Assembly (NCBI GenBank): GCA_028710985.1
Contig: JAQTTB010000002.1
Span: 86,750-150,749 of the forward strand
From: Patescibacteria group bacterium
GTDB taxonomy: Bacteria; Patescibacteriota; Patescibacteriia; JAHJFT01
Direction: 5' to 3'
Length of the DNA stretch: 64,000 nucleotides
Below are positions 3,170-63,712 of this stretch, piece by piece; position 1 is the stretch's first letter; every line of letters begins with the position of its first letter. The notes below the pieces were generated by a model. It was given only the letters and a program-made list of their open reading frames with translations, had not been told where the DNA came from and searched no databases. The translations under genes and the position numbers were made by a program.

Positions 3170-3197
3170 AAAAACCCCCTTTTTGAACGGGGGCTTT
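3170..3197. terminator. Bidirectional intrinsic terminator, hairpin cccccttttgaacggggg flanked by A and T runs
   Basis: GC stem with the ttgaac loop; belongs to the same hairpin family as the inverted repeats of the DUF559 element. Confidence 0.55.
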
Positions 3198-3470: not shown

Positions 3471-4907
3471 CTATATTTTACGCACAGCCCGGATAAACTG
3501 CTCGCCACGGTCAAATTCATTGCGAAATAAACCAAAGCTCGCGGCCGACGGTGAAAGCAGGATAATCTCACCTTTTTTGGCAAGCTTTTTGGCGAGATTT
3601 ACGGCCGCGTTCATGGAGTCTACCGTGGACTCAATCTCAACCCGGTTTTTTTTGAGTTCGGCGGACATTTTTGGCGTGGCCGTGCCCTGAAGCAGGACGA
3701 CTTTTTTACAATATTTTTTAAGCGCCTTTGCCCATTCCCCGAAGATGAGCTCTTTGTCCGCCCCGCCGGCAATCAGGATGATATTCTTCTGCACCCCGAG
3801 GGTGCGCAGAGCCGCGATTCCGGCATCCGGCGTGGTGGCGGTAGTATCATTATAATATTTGACTCCCCTGATCTCGCGGATGAGCTCCTGCCGGTCCGCC
3901 AGGCCATTGAACGCGCGCAGGGTTTTCCGCACCGCGACGCACGGCACGCCCATTATTTTCGCTACCGCGAGCGCGGCCAGACTGTTATAAAGATTATGTT
4001 CTCCGCGCATTGCCGCGTCTTTTACTGACGCGACATTACGGACGCGCCCGTCCTCTCGGAAAATCATGCGTCCGTTTTTAACCATGGCGCCGTTTTCTTC
4101 AATGAACGGTTTAAGCGAAAACCAGAAACGCCGGCCAATCACCCGCGCGCCAAACTGCCGCGTATATTTATTATCGCGGTTCAGCACTGCGAAATCGCCG
4201 ACATTCTGATGCGCGAGAATCATTGCCTTGGCTTCGCCGTACTCTTTCATGCCGTTATATGTATTCAGATGATCGCGCATCACGTTGGTGATGACCGCGC
4301 CGTGCGGGCTCATCCGCCCTGCGTTGAGATCTTCAAGCATCCATGAAGAAAGTTCAACCACCGCGACATCCCCGGGCCGGAGTTTGTGCAAAAAATTCAA
4401 CGGAGAAATCTTGATATTGCCGCCCAAAAAAACGCGCCTGTATTTGCGCTTCAGCATCTCGTAGATGAGCGACGTGGTCGTGCTCTTGCCGCGCGTTCCG
4501 GTGACCCCGATAATCCGGCACGGGCAATGGCGGAAAAATATGGTCATGTCGGATTCAATGTGCGCGCCGGCTTTTCTCGCCGCCGCAAGGTATTCGGAAC
4601 TGCGCCGCATGCCCGGATTCTTAACCACAATGTCGGCTTCGCGGAAATCCGATATCCGGTGCTTTCCCAAAACAAACTTAATCTTGAGTCCCCGGAGCGA
4701 GCGCACGCTTTTTGCAAGAAGCGCGGCGGACTTCAAATCCGTCACCGTGACCCGCGCGCCGAGTTTGGCAAAAAACCGGGCCGCCGAAATCCCGCTCCCC
4801 TTCTCATACGACCCCAAACCGGCGATCAGGATTTTTTTATTTTTATATTCTGAAAATTGATTATGCATAATTTGTAATATTACCTGCTCATCTGCGCGGA
4901 CGAACAA
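3471..4907 (-). CDS. murD: UDP-N-acetylmuramoylalanine--D-glutamate ligase
   Basis: N-terminal Rossmann fold (KKILIAGLGSYEKGSG), central GVTGTRGKSTTTSLI P-loop, Mur ligase C-domain. Confidence 0.75.
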   Translation of the reverse strand: MFVRADEQVILQIMHNQFSEYKNKKILIAGLGSYEKGSGISAARFFAKLGARVTVTDLKSAALLAKSVRSLRGLKIKFVLGKHRISDFREADIVVKNPGMRRSSEYLAAARKAGAHIESDMTIFFRHCPCRIIGVTGTRGKSTTTSLIYEMLKRKYRRVFLGGNIKISPLNFLHKLRPGDVAVVELSSWMLEDLNAGRMSPHGAVITNVMRDHLNTYNGMKEYGEAKAMILAHQNVGDFAVLNRDNKYTRQFGARVIGRRFWFSLKPFIEENGAMVKNGRMIFREDGRVRNVASVKDAAMRGEHNLYNSLAALAVAKIMGVPCVAVRKTLRAFNGLADRQELIREIRGVKYYNDTTATTPDAGIAALRTLGVQKNIILIAGGADKELIFGEWAKALKKYCKKVVLLQGTATPKMSAELKKNRVEIESTVDSMNAAVNLAKKLAKKGEIILLSPSAASFGLFRNEFDRGEQFIRAVRKI

Positions 4908-4913
4908 TATCGT

Positions 4914-5364
4914 CCTCCCCCTTTGTTCAAAAGGGGGAGACAGGGGGGGGATTTTTTTCTCTAATCCCCTATCGCCTCGGCAATTTTGTTGACAACCTCA
5001 TCTGGGCTTTTTAATACATCGCCGTTTGAAAAACGCAGCACCCTAAGTTTCCAAACATACTCCAGATATTTATTTCTTTCTTCGTCACGTGTTCTCTGCA
5101 ATTTGTCATAATTATGATGACCGCCATCAACTTCAACCACCAACTTCTTAGACGGACAATAAAAATCAACTATATAATTGCCAATCCTTGTTTGACGAAA
5201 AAATTGCGCGCCATAAACTTGTTTGTGGCGCAATCGAATCCAAAGTGTCATTTCCGCTGGCGTCATCGCCTTACGAAGATTGCGCGCCGTGGTTTTTAGT
5301 TTTGAGTTGTAAGTAGGCATAAAATCCCTCCCTGACCCTCCCTTTTGAACAAAGGGAGGGAACG
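4914..5364. mobile_element. 451-bp unit bounded by 44-bp inverted repeats whose only cargo is a DUF559 endonuclease gene
   Basis: Left repeat 4914-4957 and the reverse complement of right repeat 5321-5364 align at about 80% identity (ccccctttgttcaaaagggggagacaggggggggatttt versus ccctccctttgttcaaaagggagggtcagggagggatttt); the repeats abut the stop and start codons exactly. Confidence 0.5.
4961..5320 (-). CDS. DUF559 / Vsr-like (very-short-patch-repair-like) endonuclease domain protein
   Basis: 119 aa with the YVDFYCPSKKLVVEVDGGHH core typical of DUF559 restriction-endonuclease-like proteins. Confidence 0.65.
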   Translation of the reverse strand: MPTYNSKLKTTARNLRKAMTPAEMTLWIRLRHKQVYGAQFFRQTRIGNYIVDFYCPSKKLVVEVDGGHHNYDKLQRTRDEERNKYLEYVWKLRVLRFSNGDVLKSPDEVVNKIAEAIGD

Positions 5365-5394
5365 TTATATGAATGTCTTAATCAGCTCACCGTC

Positions 5395-5414
5395 ATTCCC
5401 GCGAAAGCGGGAAT
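5395..5414. repeat. Perfect hairpin ATTCCCGCGAAAGCGGGAAT
   Basis: Seen directly; the form ATTCCC-N8-GGGAAT resembles small dispersed-repeat families. Confidence 0.3.
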
Positions 5415-5483
5415 CCAGCCGCTAAGATTAACCAAGACGCGCCGTATTCAAGCGGATTGATTAACGGATGATTTCAAATAATA

Positions 5484-6104
5484 TTAAATCAGATTAATAT
5501 CAATAAGCAAATCCCTCACTCTTTGAAAAATCTTCTCATGTCCGCGAGCGTTTGGATGCAAGCCATCCTCAAAATCCTCGTGATTCAATAAGCTCTTAAT
5601 CTCCGCATATTTTACCCCCTCTACGCTACAGATATCTTTCAAGGCATTATCATACTTAATAACATTATCATCATCATAAAACAATTCCGCATCCCAGGTC
5701 GTTGGCATGGTCTTTTTCTCATCAACTCCGGCCAACCCCACAATTATTGCCCTGCCCTCAATTTTCTTTGCCTGTTTTATCAATTTAAAAATATTCTTTT
5801 TAAATCTCCGTAGCGGGACTTTTGGATTTTTTTTCGCCACGCGATAATAAGAATCATTGATGCCGACGGCAAAAATAATTATGCCGGGGTCTCGCGTCCT
5901 AGCCTCTCCCTTGAATCTTTTTAAAAGTTTGTCCGTATTGTCTCCCGAAATACCAAGATTATAGACCGAAACATCTTCGTAATTTTTAGCACAAAAAATC
6001 TTCAGTCTCTCCGCCCAGCCGCCCTGTTCATAGTCGCACGCTCCCCAGACGATACTATCGCCAAAAACGCAAATATTTTTATCCATATTTTTAAAATTTA
6101 CCAA
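5484..6104 (-). CDS. SGNH/GDSL-family hydrolase
   Basis: Blocks ICVFGDSIVWG, GISGD, GINDS and the DGLHPN catalytic His block. Confidence 0.75.
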   Translation of the reverse strand: MVNFKNMDKNICVFGDSIVWGACDYEQGGWAERLKIFCAKNYEDVSVYNLGISGDNTDKLLKRFKGEARTRDPGIIIFAVGINDSYYRVAKKNPKVPLRRFKKNIFKLIKQAKKIEGRAIIVGLAGVDEKKTMPTTWDAELFYDDDNVIKYDNALKDICSVEGVKYAEIKSLLNHEDFEDGLHPNARGHEKIFQRVRDLLIDINLI

Positions 6105-59659: not shown

Positions 59660-59784
59660 TTATAAATACAAATCTATTTCGAAAAGGGACTCGAAGGGCG
59701 CGAGAAAATGCGACCCTGGGAGCATTTGGTGCGCAGCGCCCCGGACCGCGAGCCTGCCTGCCGGCAGGCAGGTCGGAGCGAGCG

Positions 59785-59877: not shown

Positions 59878-60408
59878 CTAATAATCAATTCCCGCTCTCG
59901 CCGCGACACCCTGATCCATATAATGCTTCACATTCCTCATGTCAGTCACCAGATCCGCGGCCTGCATTATTTCCGGCCGCGCGTTGCGTCCGGTAAGCAC
60001 CAATTCAATGCGCTCCGGCTTGGGCAAAATCAAATCCAGAACATCGGCGAGCGCGACAAGTTCCTGATGCAGAATATTATTAATCTCGTCAAGAATCAAA
60101 ACATCATGCTCGGCGCGTTCCAGGATCTCGCGCGCGATTTCCAATCCCCTTTTTGCTTCCCACCTGTCCTCATCGGTTACCGAAAAATCAAATTGATCCG
60201 TTGCTGGGTTAAACCTCGCGCGGCCGCATGCCCAAAAATCAATTTCGTCTGCAAAACGCTTTTCAAACATCTTTCTTTCCGAATAAAAATCCCCGCCCTT
60301 GTCAAAATACACAATCGCCACGCGCCGTCCTGACTGCACCGCCCTCATCGCAAGTCCGATTGCCGCCGTGGTCTTCCCTTTTCCATCACCAGTATAGACA
60401 TGTATCAT
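59878..60408 (-). CDS. cobA: Cob(I)alamin adenosyltransferase (CobA/BtuR/CobO type)
   Basis: P-loop MIHVYTGDGKGKTTAAIGLA and the LDEINN block; 176 aa. Confidence 0.8.
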   Translation of the reverse strand: MIHVYTGDGKGKTTAAIGLAMRAVQSGRRVAIVYFDKGGDFYSERKMFEKRFADEIDFWACGRARFNPATDQFDFSVTDEDRWEAKRGLEIAREILERAEHDVLILDEINNILHQELVALADVLDLILPKPERIELVLTGRNARPEIMQAADLVTDMRNVKHYMDQGVAARAGIDY

Positions 60409-60441: not shown

Positions 60442-60461
60442 CCTGCCTGCCGGCAGGCAGG
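60442..60461. repeat. REP-like palindrome CCTGCCTGCCGGCAGGCAGG between cobA and nrdJ, followed by TTCCTACAAGCTACAAGCT
   Basis: Seen directly. Confidence 0.6.
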
Positions 60462-60486: not shown

Positions 60487-63400
60487 TCAGGAGCAGCCGC
60501 TCGTTCCTCCGCAGTTCAAACATTTATAGCACGCGCCGTTTCTCACCATCATGCTGCCGCAGGTATCGCAAACCGGCGCGTCGGCTTGCATGTCAAAAGT
60601 CACTGTGTCATCCTGTCCGAGCTGGCGGCCGAGCGGTAATTTTTGTTTTTTCAAATCAATCTCTTCAACCTTTTCCGAGGGCGTCTGCGTCTCTATCTGC
60701 TGGGGCAGTTCCTGCGGCGCGTTGATGCCGATCATTGCCTGCTCTTCGGCCGGCAAAAATTTCATAGACAACCAGCGGAAAATATAATCAATAATTGATT
60801 TCGCGATACGGATATTCGGATTGTTAGTCACACCCGACGGCTCAAACCGCATGTGCGCGAATTTATTCACCAGCACGCGGAGCGGCACTCCGTACTGCAT
60901 GCCAATTGAAACTGACGTGGCAAATGCGTCCATGAGTCCGGAGATCACGCTGCCCGTCTTGCTCATGGTGATAAAAATCTCTCCTGGTTCGCCGTTGTCA
61001 AACATACCGACCGTAATATAACCCTCGTGATTGGCTACCGAGAATTTATGGGTGATAGAACGGCGCTCATCCGGCATACGGCGGCGGCGCGGCTTGTACT
61101 CTTCGGCTCTTGCCTCGGCCGCTTTTGCCGGTTTCACATCCTTGCCGTCTTTCGAAGTAGTGAGCGGCTGGGTGCGTTTTGAATTGTTGCGGTAGATCGC
61201 GATTGCCTTAAGACCAGAACGCCAGGCCAGCATATAAGTTTCCGCGATTTCATCTTCGGTCGCATCCTCCGGCATGTTTACGGTTTTGGAAATCGCACCC
61301 GAAAGAAACGGCTGGACCGCGGACATCATTTTCACGTGTCCGATGTAATGGATACTTCGCTTGCCGTTCTGCGGTTTAAAAGCGCAGTCAAAAACCTTGA
61401 GATGCTCTTCTTTGAGATTCGGCGCGCCCTCAATCGTATCGTTCGCGTCAATGTATTCCAGGATCAACTTTACCTGTTCGGCCGGATATCCCAGATCGGC
61501 AAGCGCTTCAGGCACGGTGTGATTAATCATTTTAATTAAGCCGCCGCCGACCAGCCATTTATATTTTACAAGCGCGATATCCGGCTCAATGCCCGTGGTA
61601 TCGCAATCCATCAAGAATCCGATCGTTCCGGTCGGCGCAAGAACCGTCACCTGCGCGTTCTTGTACCCGCTCTCTTGGCCGTGCGCCAAAGCCTCATCCC
61701 ACATGCGGTTTGCTGTTTCCAGAAGAAGCGGCGGCGCGCCCGCCGGTTCGATCCGCTGGCTCGCATCACGATGCATTTCAATCACACGCAAAAACGATTC
61801 TTCATTTTCCGGATAACAACGGAAGGTGCCCAGGCGTTCCGCCAGGCGGGCCGACTGGTCATAAGCCGTCGCGGTCATAAGAGATGTCACTCCGGCCGCG
61901 AAATTTCGTCCTTCATCACCGTCATAAGCCAGGCCGCGCGACATAAGAAGCGCGCCGAGATTGGCATACCCCAGCCCGAGCGGACGAAAATCCCGCGCGT
62001 TCTGCTCGATCGCCGGCGTAGGATAGGAAGAATTGTCAATCACAATCTCCTGCGCCGTGACCAAGGTCCGAGCGGTATGGATAAATTGTTGCGTATCAAA
62101 CTCACCGTCTTCACGACGGCATTTCATCAAATTGATTGAAGCGAGATTGCACGCCGAATCATCCAGAAACATATATTCCGAGCAGGGATTGGAGGCATTA
62201 ATGCGGCCCGACACCGGACAGGTGTGCCAGCGGTTCACGGTCGTGTCGAACTGCAGGCCCGGATCGCCGCAAATCCACGCCGCCTTGGAAATCTGCTTCA
62301 TCAAATCCTTGGCGCGAAATTTTTCAAGTGTCTCGCCGGTGGTCACTTTTTTTGTCGCCCACTCTTCATCCGCCTCAACCGCGTGCATGAAATCGTCGTT
62401 CACGCGCACGCTGTTATTTGCATTTTGAAAAAATATTGAATTATACGCCTCGCCGTCAAATGATCCGTCATACCCCGCGTCAATTAACGCCCATGCTTTT
62501 TTCTCTTCGCTGGATTTGCAGTTTATAAATTCAACAATATCCGGATGGTCAATATTTAAAATTACCATCTTGGCCGCGCGCCGCGTCTTGCCGCCGGACT
62601 TGATAACCCCGGCAAAAGCGTCAAAGCCCTTCATGAAAGAAACCGGCCCCGAAGACTTGCCCGACGAGGAACCCAGAAACTCTTTTGAAGAACGAAGTGA
62701 TGAAAGATTGCTGCCCGTTCCGGAACCGTATTTAAAAAGCATGCCCTCGGTCATCGCGAGGTTCAGAATCGAACGCATGTCATCCTGCACCGAATTAATA
62801 AAGCATGCCGATGTCTGCGGCCGCTCGCTGATACCCACATTAAACCAGACTGGGCTATTGAACGCCGCGTATTGATTCGCGAGAATATAACATAGCTCGT
62901 CTTCAAACGCCTGCGCGTCTTCCTGGGTTTCAAAATATCCACCGCAGCGCCCCCAGTCGGTAATCGTTTTTGTAACCCGGTCAATCATCTGCTTCAGGCT
63001 CAACTCCCGATCCGGTTTGCCAATCTGGCCGCGAAAATATTTGGAAACAACAATATTTGTCGCGGTTTGCGACCAGGCTTTGGGAACCTCAACATCCTTT
63101 TGCTCAAAAACCACCTCGCCCTTGTCGTTCGTGATGCGGGCGTCACGCCGCTCCCACTCAATCGCATCATATGGATGTACTCCCGGAACTGTAAAAAACC
63201 GCGTGAACCGGATGCCCGGACCGTAAACCGGAACCTTCTCCAGGCTCTGGCCTTTTTTCTGGCGGTAAGCAATAAAACACTTGGCCACGTGCGTCAGATT
63301 ATGGTCAATCAGCGTTACCTGAACAATTTCACGCACCTCATCGGACGTCGGGGTGGTGTGCCCGTTGAATTGATACGCCAGCCGGCTCAAGACCTGGCTC

Positions 63401-63630
63401 GCGACCTTGCGCGCCAGAGCCGCATCCTTCATCCCCGCGTCCGTAAAGCTGTACCAAATAGATTTGGTGAGCTTATCCGGGTTGAAATCCTGCACGTCCC
63501 CGTTTCTTTTCTTTATATTTTTTACCGTGGCCAAATACTGCCAAACCCGCTCCGGCACCTCCTTGGCCGCAAGTGAATCCGTGACGGAAAAAAATTGTTT
63601 TTCTTGGCCGCGCGAAATTGATTGGTCCAT
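60487..63630 (-). CDS. nrdJ: Class II (adenosylcobalamin-dependent) ribonucleoside-triphosphate/diphosphate reductase with an N-terminal ATP-cone and a C-terminal zinc ribbon
   Basis: ATP-cone (VKKRNGDVQDF), active-site blocks NPCSEY and CNLASINL, and the C-terminal CDTCG...CYKCLNCG; 1047 aa. Confidence 0.85.
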   Translation of the reverse strand: MDQSISRGQEKQFFSVTDSLAAKEVPERVWQYLATVKNIKKRNGDVQDFNPDKLTKSIWYSFTDAGMKDAALARKVASQVLSRLAYQFNGHTTPTSDEVREIVQVTLIDHNLTHVAKCFIAYRQKKGQSLEKVPVYGPGIRFTRFFTVPGVHPYDAIEWERRDARITNDKGEVVFEQKDVEVPKAWSQTATNIVVSKYFRGQIGKPDRELSLKQMIDRVTKTITDWGRCGGYFETQEDAQAFEDELCYILANQYAAFNSPVWFNVGISERPQTSACFINSVQDDMRSILNLAMTEGMLFKYGSGTGSNLSSLRSSKEFLGSSSGKSSGPVSFMKGFDAFAGVIKSGGKTRRAAKMVILNIDHPDIVEFINCKSSEEKKAWALIDAGYDGSFDGEAYNSIFFQNANNSVRVNDDFMHAVEADEEWATKKVTTGETLEKFRAKDLMKQISKAAWICGDPGLQFDTTVNRWHTCPVSGRINASNPCSEYMFLDDSACNLASINLMKCRREDGEFDTQQFIHTARTLVTAQEIVIDNSSYPTPAIEQNARDFRPLGLGYANLGALLMSRGLAYDGDEGRNFAAGVTSLMTATAYDQSARLAERLGTFRCYPENEESFLRVIEMHRDASQRIEPAGAPPLLLETANRMWDEALAHGQESGYKNAQVTVLAPTGTIGFLMDCDTTGIEPDIALVKYKWLVGGGLIKMINHTVPEALADLGYPAEQVKLILEYIDANDTIEGAPNLKEEHLKVFDCAFKPQNGKRSIHYIGHVKMMSAVQPFLSGAISKTVNMPEDATEDEIAETYMLAWRSGLKAIAIYRNNSKRTQPLTTSKDGKDVKPAKAAEARAEEYKPRRRRMPDERRSITHKFSVANHEGYITVGMFDNGEPGEIFITMSKTGSVISGLMDAFATSVSIGMQYGVPLRVLVNKFAHMRFEPSGVTNNPNIRIAKSIIDYIFRWLSMKFLPAEEQAMIGINAPQELPQQIETQTPSEKVEEIDLKKQKLPLGRQLGQDDTVTFDMQADAPVCDTCGSMMVRNGACYKCLNCGGTSGCS

Positions 63631-63672: not shown

Positions 63673-63712
63673 CCTGCCTGCCGCCTGCCTGCCGGTAGGC
63701 AGGGCAGGCAGG
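63673..63712. repeat. Nested double REP-like palindrome upstream of nrdJ
   Basis: cctgcctgccgcctgcctgccggtaggcagggcaggcagg. Confidence 0.5.

Follow-up and report, generated by a model that had tools for sequence, protein, structure and literature searches.

In a 64,000-nucleotide stretch of DNA from a Patescibacteria group bacterium (assembly GCA_028710985.1, contig JAQTTB010000002.1, forward-strand positions 86,750 to 150,749; hereafter the window), positions 4907-5368 hold a ~460-bp nuclease cassette in which a gene for a DUF559 protein, a Vsr-like endonuclease of the PD-(D/E)XK type, is enclosed by two inverted arms that each carry an intrastrand triplex motif. The cassette belongs to a cross-phylum family whose members are typically 420-470 bp long and sit at unrelated loci. 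We consider it fairly probable that these units are selfish and that they spread by nuclease-initiated recombination using their arms. Both ingredients were known, as the DUF559 fold family and as intrastrand-triplex repeats; what is new is a conserved, relocating cassette that joins the two, for which no paper was found.

The original prediction had described 44-bp inverted repeats of about 80% identity that closely bound the DUF559 gene, and a repeat finder bears this out with arms of 48 nt (4907-4954 and 5321-5368) that are 79% complementary. The upstream arm (5321..5368, minus strand) abuts the ATG at 5320, and the T-run of the downstream arm (4907..4958, plus strand), an inverted copy whose motif also points towards the gene, ends 2 nt from the stop codon (4961-4963). 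When complementarity of the 70-nt upstream and downstream flanks was scored for every open reading frame (ORF) of at least 80 aa in the window (n=165), the DUF559 flanks gave the top inverted-repeat score, 51, with 31 for the runner-up and a median of 13. A 17-mer core (CCCTTTGTTCAAAAGGG) occurs exactly twice in the 64 kb, once per strand, where 0.24 occurrences are expected by chance, and no further arm copy was found within the window. Both arms contain a perfect 10-bp stem with the loop GTTCA, and the two stem differences between them are both compensated (CTCCCCCTTT/AAAGGGGGAG versus CCCTCCCTTT/AAAGGGAGGG). Read towards the gene, each arm consists of a C/T run ending in TTT (Y), the loop, a block of AAA plus a G-run that is the exact complement of Y (R1), a 3-nt spacer, and a second G-run followed by ATTT (R2), and R2 faces the gene in both arms. 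On the minus strand, the upstream arm comprises an outer inverted-repeat segment (5368-5361), Y (CCCTCCCTTT, 5360-5351), the loop GTTCA (5350-5346), R1 (AAAGGGAGGG, 5345-5336), the spacer TCA (5335-5333) and R2 (GGGAGGGATTTT, 5332-5321); the corresponding parts of the downstream arm, on the plus strand, are the outer segment (4907-4914), Y (CTCCCCCTTT, 4915-4924), the loop GTTCA (4925-4929), R1 (AAAGGGGGAG, 4930-4939), the spacer ACA (4940-4942) and R2 (GGGGGGGG plus ATTTTTTT, 4943-4958). The upstream R2 (GGGAGGG) resembles a Shine-Dalgarno sequence, lies 5 nt before the ATG, and may double as the ribosome-binding site. The arms do not behave as ordinary terminator or promoter hairpins, the outcome that would have undone the original prediction: there is no terminator-like site (a GC-rich stem directly followed by a T-run) on either strand of 4700-5700, promoter-like matches fall only inside the ORF, and an Rfam search of 4700-5600 returned no family, its best matches lying far below the gathering scores.

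Judged by their sequence, both arms have the make-up that defines a class II purine-motif intrastrand triplex. The ITxF limits for such a structure are a Y block, an R1 complementary to Y and an R2 that mirrors R1, with stems of 6-15 nt, at most one mismatch and loops of 1-6 nt. A strict triplex scan (7-10-nt stems, at most one Watson-Crick mismatch and at most one triplet mismatch) of the whole 64 kb gave two matches only, and these are the two arms (5324-5361 and 4915-4953), while shuffled sequence gave none. In its best parses the scan assigns 10-nt stems and first loops of 5 and 7 nt; direct reading gives each arm a 5-nt loop and a 3-nt spacer, within the ITxF limits. In the upstream arm R2 is the exact mirror of R1 (R1 AAAGGGAGGG, R2 GGGAGGGA), and the A that interrupts R1 recurs in R2. 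The same behaviour was counted among 154 distinct arms from related loci, which fall into at least 5 sequence classes: where R1 carries an asymmetric interruption, R2 carries it at the mirrored position in 34 cases and at the direct-repeat position in 1. Mirrored pairs of R1 and R2 include GAGGGG with GGGGAG, GGAGGG with GGGAGG, GGGAGG with GGAGGG, GGAGGGG with GGGG[A/T]GG, and GAGGGGG with GGGGGAG, A/T interchange being tolerated opposite A-T pairs. An antiparallel purine-motif triplex needs a mirror purine repeat, built from G·G-C, A·A-T and T·A-T triplets, and the mirrored pattern with its A/T interchange fits such a triplex. If Y instead formed Watson-Crick pairs with R2, as in a riboswitch-like switch of the Shine-Dalgarno sequence, the opposite would be expected; that arrangement predicts a direct repeat and was rejected on the 34-to-1 count. 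ViennaRNA covers Watson-Crick and wobble pairs only.

By the order of their blocks, the arms belong to the intrastrand-triplex architecture that has been described as BoxC/PIT/TMECO, repeats of which Hoyne and colleagues reportedly treated the BoxC/PIT type in 2000. The TMECO repeat of Escherichia coli (CCCTCNCCC-N3-6-GGGNGAGGG-N3-GGGNGAGGG), described by Holder et al. (2015, PMC4666352), is identical with BoxC and with what the Maher laboratory called PIT elements. Holder et al. report that its single strand forms a stable triplex in vitro, and TMECO is the one motif of this class whose folding has been shown in that way. According to the same work, TMECO is intergenic, is often arranged in ‘tandem inverted’ pairs in which two subtypes are always joined (type A plus type B), and marks variable genome regions, with no common flanking gene, function or link to a mobile element found; earlier work, as far as it is cited there, assigns TMECO/PIT elements no promoter or terminator activity. 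The window arms share with these repeats the C-rich stem, the 3-6-nt loop, the G-rich stem, the short second loop and the mirrored G-rich stem, as well as the intergenic setting, the frequent ‘tandem inverted’ two-subtype pairing and the tie to local genome variability, and arms of TMECO type are found at some DUF559 loci (L064, L067, L076 and E. coli ycjD). They differ in sequence, since C(T/C)C(C/T)CCCTTT ... AAAGGG(G/A)G(A/G)G ... G-run+ATTT departs from the consensus CCCTCNCCC...GGGNGAGGG, and in that they form the two ends of a gene cassette. The view of the arms as terminal inverted repeats (TIRs) holds as to their inverted, terminal placement, but they are triplex motifs of the form Y-R1-R2 rather than generic TIRs. 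The main text of PMC4666352 makes no mention of DUF559, ycjD or an endonuclease, and its Table S2 places TMECO #9 between fabI and ycjD; our literature searches on DUF559, ycjD and TMECO/PIT found no paper linking DUF559 to triplex repeats.

Units of a repeat, DUF559 and a second repeat recur across phyla, as a search for further copies established. We gathered 80 DUF559 loci, 41-58% identical to the window protein, from contigs representing one genome per species; they span Desulfobacterota, Nitrospirota, Chloroflexota, Planctomycetota, Zixibacteria, WOR-3, Bacteroidota, Elusimicrobiota, Patescibacteria, Nitrospinota, Bdellovibrionota and others. The flanks form a significant inverted repeat at ~40 of the 75 testable loci, among which a common arm motif, TCCCCCCTTT-GAAA-AAAGGGGGG-NN-AGGGGGGATTT, can be discerned, and a strict triplex motif lies no more than 200 nt from the gene at 69 of the 80. 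Motif density is ~1.9/kb beside DUF559 versus ~0.08-0.11/kb elsewhere in the same loci (0.08/kb in a looser scan), and the enrichment around DUF559 relative to neighbouring genes is 25-fold. The nearest motif points at the gene in 45/52 loci upstream and in 35/45 downstream. Upstream motifs mostly end 2-16 nt before the start codon, while downstream motifs begin between -2 and +9 nt from the stop and often provide the TAA itself; the gaps between face-to-face motifs cluster at 339-444 nt, and whole units measure 422-470 bp. The association holds across sequence flavours, including TMECO-type arms (L064, L067 and L076), and it is therefore the architecture that matters, not any single sequence. 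Within a unit the arms are often of unlike flavour, with a pure G-run upstream and GAGGGG/GGGGAG downstream (L009, L031, L033 and L036), which echoes the rule of type A plus type B reported for E. coli TMECO. The converse, motif-first test gave the same picture: when metagenome contigs were scanned for face-to-face arms (GGGGGNNNGGGGGATT ... AATCCCCCNNNCCCCC) 345-375 nt apart, DUF559 was present in 37/45 (82%) of the size-matched arm pairs. The link is seen in cultured organisms as well. At E. coli ycjD (locus L208; K-12, NC_000913.3 1351030-1351830), a degenerate hairpin of BoxC type lies over the gene's 3' end and is followed by a duplicated fragment of this 3' end and then by the canonical TMECO #9. 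In Neisseria gonorrhoeae, the homologue of the crystallised NGO0050 has an upstream motif pointing at the gene, as does Azospirillum. In N. gonorrhoeae (L256, 2004-2705), a tandem array of triplex motifs with a period of ~281 nt (CCTCTCTCCCTGTGGGAGAGAGCTAGAGAGAGGG) lies downstream of the DUF559 homologue of Protein Data Bank (PDB) entry 3HRL. One contig (L013) carries a second, divergent DUF559 gene of the GKYIVDF type at 1195-1602, 0.9 kb upstream of its first cassette, and this gene too is inside a face-to-face pair of triplex motifs.

Comparison of related cassettes points to movement. In each of four pairs of loci (L017/L019, from two Zixibacteria; L004/L015; L020/L023; and L009/L031), nucleotide identity of 78-82% extends over 420-440 nt, a stretch (about -40 to +50 relative to the gene) that coincides exactly with the arms plus the gene, and the rest of the 5-kb loci shows no similarity even by tblastx. 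Two copies on different contigs of a single metagenome-assembled genome (MAG) are 86% identical over 637 nt (L039/L042), and cassettes that are 89-93% identical (L229/L248/L241) lie on metagenome contigs of 2-12 kb that are otherwise unrelated. Target-site duplication was not detected, as the best direct repeats at 31 cassette boundaries match the shuffled expectation and the window boundary has only a TTC direct repeat that is offset from it; a classical TIR transposon is therefore unlikely. The suggestion of a minimal mobile or homing unit is supported in that the unit looks selfish or mobile and has relatives at unrelated loci. Between relocated cassettes the hairpin loops differ in 23/32 comparisons and the R1-R2 spacers in 17/32, the corresponding values for syntenic pairs being 11/57 and 20/57; because the pairs are not independent, we regard this excess of loop divergence as suggestive only. 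Separately, among closely related cassettes, the upstream arms of L241 and L255 and the downstream arms of L248 and L215 were seen to have a missing outer half-hairpin or a loop insertion of ~20 nt, and the hairpin loops look like hot spots for breakage or rearrangement. Insertion of the gene into the loop of a pre-existing hairpin was considered and set aside, as such arms make up only ~6 of ~145; nor was this model adopted for the window, because each window stem pairs perfectly with its own partner and not with the other arm.

The window itself records an insertion into a cell-wall operon. Its relatives share the synteny ATPase-Translin-MFS-GT2-GDSL-murD-DUF5679-murE, in which 2 nt lie between the stop codon of the GDSL gene and the ATG of murD (L082 and L083) or the two overlap by 4 nt (L087), with no DUF559 between them and, in a strict scan of the syntenic relatives, no triplex motif. 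In the window, an insertion of 615 nt thus separates these two codons (4869..5483); it is made up of the 462-bp inverted-repeat-bounded cassette, 115 nt upstream of it and 38 nt downstream. Comparing this junction had been proposed as a check, and the discrete inserted unit that had been predicted is indeed present in the window and missing from three syntenic relatives, the locus being filled in the one and empty in L082, L083 and L087. These closest relatives are distant, with MurD proteins 66-70% identical, and the comparison is one of presence or absence at family level. The GC content of the inserted segment is 0.39-0.42, versus 0.50-0.58 in murD, and falls from ~0.55 to ~0.40 across the cassette.

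The DUF559 gene (4961..5320, minus strand) encodes 119 aa and is intact and full-length. It matches PF04480 with an E-value of 1.8e-31 and 108.7 bits (gathering score 20.6) over profile positions 2-108 of 109. On the NCBIfam model PRK09767 it reaches 65 bits against a cut-off of 218 and is therefore not the YcjD equivalog. Inspection of the catalytic residues, which had been called for, found them in place: the window protein has the expected residue at each of the 15 positions that are invariant in a 24-sequence alignment, D52, E63 and D65 among them, and also has the nearly invariant H69, in a pattern of the form IVDF...E-x-D-G..H. The protein also aligns with PDB 3HRL (E=6e-16), the structure of N. 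gonorrhoeae NGO0050. By profile comparison, the homing endonuclease I-Bth0305I is the nearest characterised structural relative of DUF559; the family profile matches its catalytic domain (3R3P) with E=8.5e-5, while its N-terminal DNA-binding region is absent from DUF559. The exact window protein was found only at this locus, in one Patescibacteria MAG, and the 64-kb window holds no second DUF559 gene. A Pfam search detected no transposase domain at the cassette, whose sole ORF is DUF559, and a domain search of the neighbours detected no cytosine methyltransferase adjacent to it. Membership in a defence system was also considered, but PADLOC and PHROGs gave weak matches to nuclease domains only.

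The motif is abundant without DUF559, and the arms therefore have a life independent of the nuclease, in a motif family that exceeds the cassettes. In IMG/VR, more than 120 stretches were matched by the exact motif. Solo forms comprise double-sided palindromes of the form R2'-Y-loop-R1-R2, which are the commonest, back-to-back pairs, tandem arrays and face-to-face pairs; gene-less face-to-face pairs have AT-rich spacers of 2-35 nt, and several of them, including E. coli fepB-entC, show the heterotypic pairing of the cassettes. In the IMG/VR contigs L134 (1075-1666 and 3547-4686) and L146 (3618-4957), structural genes lie inside face-to-face motifs and DUF559 is absent, and triplex motifs may act as module boundaries in phage genomes. 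At another locus (L047, 4001-4442), a four-helix-bundle gene resembling the 23S rRNA intervening-sequence (IVS) protein is, like the DUF559 gene, a small gene with structured inverted flanks (CATTGCGAG...GCAATC hairpins) and is interrupted by two triplex motifs placed back to back (4150-4245), which shows that a motif pair can insert in the manner of a miniature inverted-repeat transposable element (MITE).

On the reading that we favour, DUF559 would be selfish and would introduce a nick or break at or between a face-to-face pair of arms. Repair from a filled copy would then put the gene into ‘empty’ arm pairs in a homing-like manner, with the 35-48-bp arms serving as homology; alternatively, the nuclease might move the entire arm-gene-arm unit. 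The arms would act at the level of DNA, since single-stranded DNA is able to form purine-motif triplexes whereas RNA is not (Holder et al. 2015, PMC4666352). A homing-type process fits the absence of target duplication, the tight distances between gene and arms, the existence of empty sites and the profile match to I-Bth0305I, and the divergent loops of relocated cassettes are suggestive of it. The intact catalytic residues speak for a working nuclease, as does the DNA damage that a DUF559 protein causes in vivo in Caulobacter (PMC12907096), which is indirect evidence. I-Bth0305I, a free-standing homing endonuclease of the EDxHD/Vsr-like type (Taylor et al. 2011, PMC3239194), resembles the cassettes in being a small selfish nuclease gene with presence/absence polymorphism, empty counterpart sites, no target-site duplication and a homologous catalytic core. 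However, it resides in a group I intron of phage recA and possesses the extra N-terminal DNA-binding region (PMC3239194), whereas DUF559 is a bare core of ~115 aa, lies outside any intron or intein, has its own structured inverted arms, and occupies many unrelated intergenic sites instead of one conserved host gene. As the window copy is without a close relative anywhere, it is probably an insertion that is old and resident, with arms that have stayed able to fold. A more far-reaching version, in which the minimal Vsr-like nuclease recognises or cuts the triplex of its own arms and the BoxC/PIT/TMECO-type repeats of bacteria and phages are gene-less derivatives or landing sites of the cassette, we put forward only tentatively.

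Several observations weigh against selfish, nuclease-driven spread. Among 5.8 billion proteins there is no homologue more than 57% identical to the window DUF559, and the window copy therefore gives no sign of recent mobility; an attempt to trace its recent movement through close protein relatives ended at the same threshold. Carriage by phages or plasmids was considered as well, but DUF559 is rare on both (30/72,556 plasmids and 2/50,697 phages). The relatives' junction lacks arms, and homing into an empty pair is therefore not demonstrated at the window locus, where either the whole unit arrived together or it arrived in steps that are now invisible; the distance of these relatives also makes the insertion boundaries unmappable. 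In 696 kb of viral contigs, DUF559 is near 0/97 motif copies, and on some phage contigs it is ordinary structural genes that lie between the motifs. We know of no biochemical activity for any minimal DUF559 protein, and that DUF559 recognises or cleaves the arms is something we infer from the arrangement of the sequence. Finally, the TMECO triplex was undetected in double-stranded DNA or in vivo (PMC4666352).

Other explanations place the mobility elsewhere or dispense with it. A resident and possibly domesticated DUF559 might create, spread or maintain dispersed triplex repeats while the gene itself stays immobile, lying between two repeats since the repeat family originates there. This would resemble the relation between repetitive extragenic palindromic (REP) sequences, their REPIN doublets and the REP-associated tyrosine transposases (RAYTs), whose genes are reportedly flanked by inverted REPs (as Nunvar in 2010 and Bertels and Rainey in 2011 are said to have described); the architecture mirrors theirs, with a nuclease-type gene between two inverted hairpin repeats that are also dispersed as solo units or inverted doublets. 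The same genomes do contain motifs at a distance from DUF559, in the form of solo double-sided palindromes, of tandem arrays and of back-to-back pairs, and dispersed copies in L043 match the arm, loop included. Nevertheless, we regard this explanation as unlikely. Neither the 64-kb window nor the relatives contain another motif that the enzyme could maintain, although dispersed copies exist in L043 and L003, the cassettes sit in unrelated contexts with homology stopping at the arms, and motif-rich phage contigs lack DUF559. In E. coli, published TMECO counts are 19-30 in phylogroups that bear ycjD, beside which TMECO #9 lies, and 1-2 in B2 strains, in which eefRABCD occupies the ycjD site, but strains of D/E/F have 6-15 copies, and most of these phylogroups are reportedly without ycjD; the correlation is suggestive and is confounded by phylogroup. 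The parts also differ, as RAYTs are HUH Y1 transposases (TnpA_REP) of the IS200/IS605 family whereas the window gene belongs to PF04480 and not to Y1_Tnp, and REPs, which carry a GTAG-type tetranucleotide, are simple hairpins and lack the three blocks of a triplex motif. DUF559 might instead act as a transposase that cuts both structured ends and inserts the unit anew, perhaps through single-stranded intermediates such as those of IS200/IS605 elements, which likewise make no target duplication. Whole arms travel with the gene, several loci including 5-15 nt outside the hairpin; both arms of a unit can share an unusual loop, such as GTTCA in the window; the window insertion site is armless in relatives and has no target-site duplication; and PD-(D/E)XK nucleases can be transposase subunits, as TnsA is in the work cited by PMC1189080, as far as it is cited there. 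TnsA, however, needs TnsB, and no strand-transfer activity is known for a Vsr-like nuclease of 115 aa. In relocated cassettes the outer half-stems and loops are less conserved than the inner parts, and some are missing, which fits gene conversion better than the cut-and-paste of fixed ends, and near-identical multi-copy cassettes within a genome are rare in our sample (only L039/L042, at 86%). We therefore hold transposition to be quite improbable. The cassette shares with MITEs and TIR insertion sequences its terminal inverted repeats, small size and gene-less ‘empty’ derivatives, but it lacks a target-site duplication above chance and a recognised transposase, and its arms are a hairpin plus a mirror repeat. 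An integron attC cassette was dismissed as well, as the arms are inverted on both sides and there is neither an array nor an integrase among the neighbours.

The third possibility needs no mobility in which the inverted symmetry plays a part: DUF559 would be a plain, horizontally acquired gene for a solitary mismatch-repair enzyme of Vsr type, with hairpins that stabilise or insulate the ends of its mRNA and a G-run that serves as the Shine-Dalgarno sequence. The GGGAGGG 5 nt before the window ATG and the 2-16 nt between motif and start codon across loci agree with this, as do motifs before and behind ordinary genes in phage contigs. Vsr of E. coli and VsrA of Caulobacter share the fold and the catalytic residues, and VsrA, which has a DUF559 domain, has been proposed to be a Vsr-type repair enzyme (PMC12907096). 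Yet neither a Shine-Dalgarno role nor alternative Watson-Crick pairing accounts for the 34-to-1 mirror covariation, some R2 variants (GGGGTGG, for example) make poor Shine-Dalgarno sequences, the transcribed strand has no intrinsic terminator signature, and PIT elements, as far as PMC4666352 cites the relevant work, are without promoter or terminator activity. The 25-fold enrichment and the 82% of size-matched arm pairs with DUF559 are likewise left unexplained, and, in contrast to Vsr, the gene has no linked cytosine methyltransferase and forms a discrete insertion with structured arms. It is very unlikely that a plain gene accounts for the locus.

The genes around the cassette all lie on the minus strand, in the order GDSL hydrolase, DUF559, murD, DUF5679 zinc-ribbon ORF and murE. 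The GDSL-family hydrolase (5484..6104; PF13472, E=3e-22) has an orthologue directly before murD in L082 and L087. The murD gene (3471..4868) carries the Pfam domains MurD-like_N, Mur_ligase_M and Mur_ligase_C; its true start is the ATG at 4868-4866, whereas a mechanical ORF call had used a TTG that falls within the downstream arm (4907). The ATG start is supported by alignment of the N-terminus MHNQFSEYKNKKILIAGLG with relatives and by the NCBI protein P0121, of 465 aa, which is 100% identical to the window MurD. The DUF5679 ORF (3393 to 3208) and murE (3147 to 1828) follow. Between them, at 3175-3192, the original prediction had seen a solo copy of the hairpin core and a footprint of the same family, a claim that we reject. 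The sequence at 3175..3193 (minus strand; CCCCCGTTCAAAAAGGGGG followed by TTTTT) is the native intrinsic terminator 3' of the DUF5679 gene and does not belong to the element: a 5-bp C/G stem leads into a T-run, with no second G-run (R2), relatives without the element have a hairpin and T-run of other sequence at the equivalent position, and the strict triplex scan did not detect it. Within the inserted segment, upstream of the cassette, lies a second, unrelated perfect hairpin, GTCATTCCCGCGAAAGCGGGAATCCAG (5392..5418), which is dRS3-like (ATTCCC-N8-GGGAAT) and present as a single copy in the window with 0.03 expected; hairpins of the type ATTCC..GGAAT are not enriched at other DUF559 loci. Relatives carry other small genes at different points of the same conserved operon, namely a four-helix-bundle gene (23S_rRNA_IVP) located between those for the ATPase and Translin (L085, 2337-2726), a 122-aa ORF between DUF5679 and murE (L087, 5758-6126) and an RNase H gene after murE (L084, 7197-7619), and small-gene insertions seem common in these streamlined genomes. 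The window genome has another gene-bracketing palindromic repeat, unrelated to the DUF559 arms: three copies of the 20-nt palindrome CCTGCCTGCCGGCAGGCAGG (59753-59772, 60442-60461 and 63684-63703), of which none are expected by chance, enclose two genes, one for a cobA-like adenosyltransferase (59878-60408) and one for a class II ribonucleotide reductase (60487-63630).

DUF559, a nuclease domain that is very frequent in bacteria, has no assigned function, and the cassette provides the first functional lead for this large family. BoxC/PIT/TMECO repeats, which have been known for ~25 years and mark unstable genome regions, gain in it a candidate enzyme partner, and the pairing yields the testable hypothesis that the nuclease works on DNA in triplex or hairpin form and thereby causes the repeats to spread or turn over. 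On the more far-reaching version set out above, these repeats, unexplained since the 1990s, would acquire both an origin and an enzyme. Were the hypothesised action on triplex or hairpin DNA to prove true, the cassettes would constitute a new type of minimal selfish element and a natural case of the recognition of triplex DNA by a protein, and they would explain one source of the intergenic insertions in streamlined genomes, those of Patescibacteria among them.

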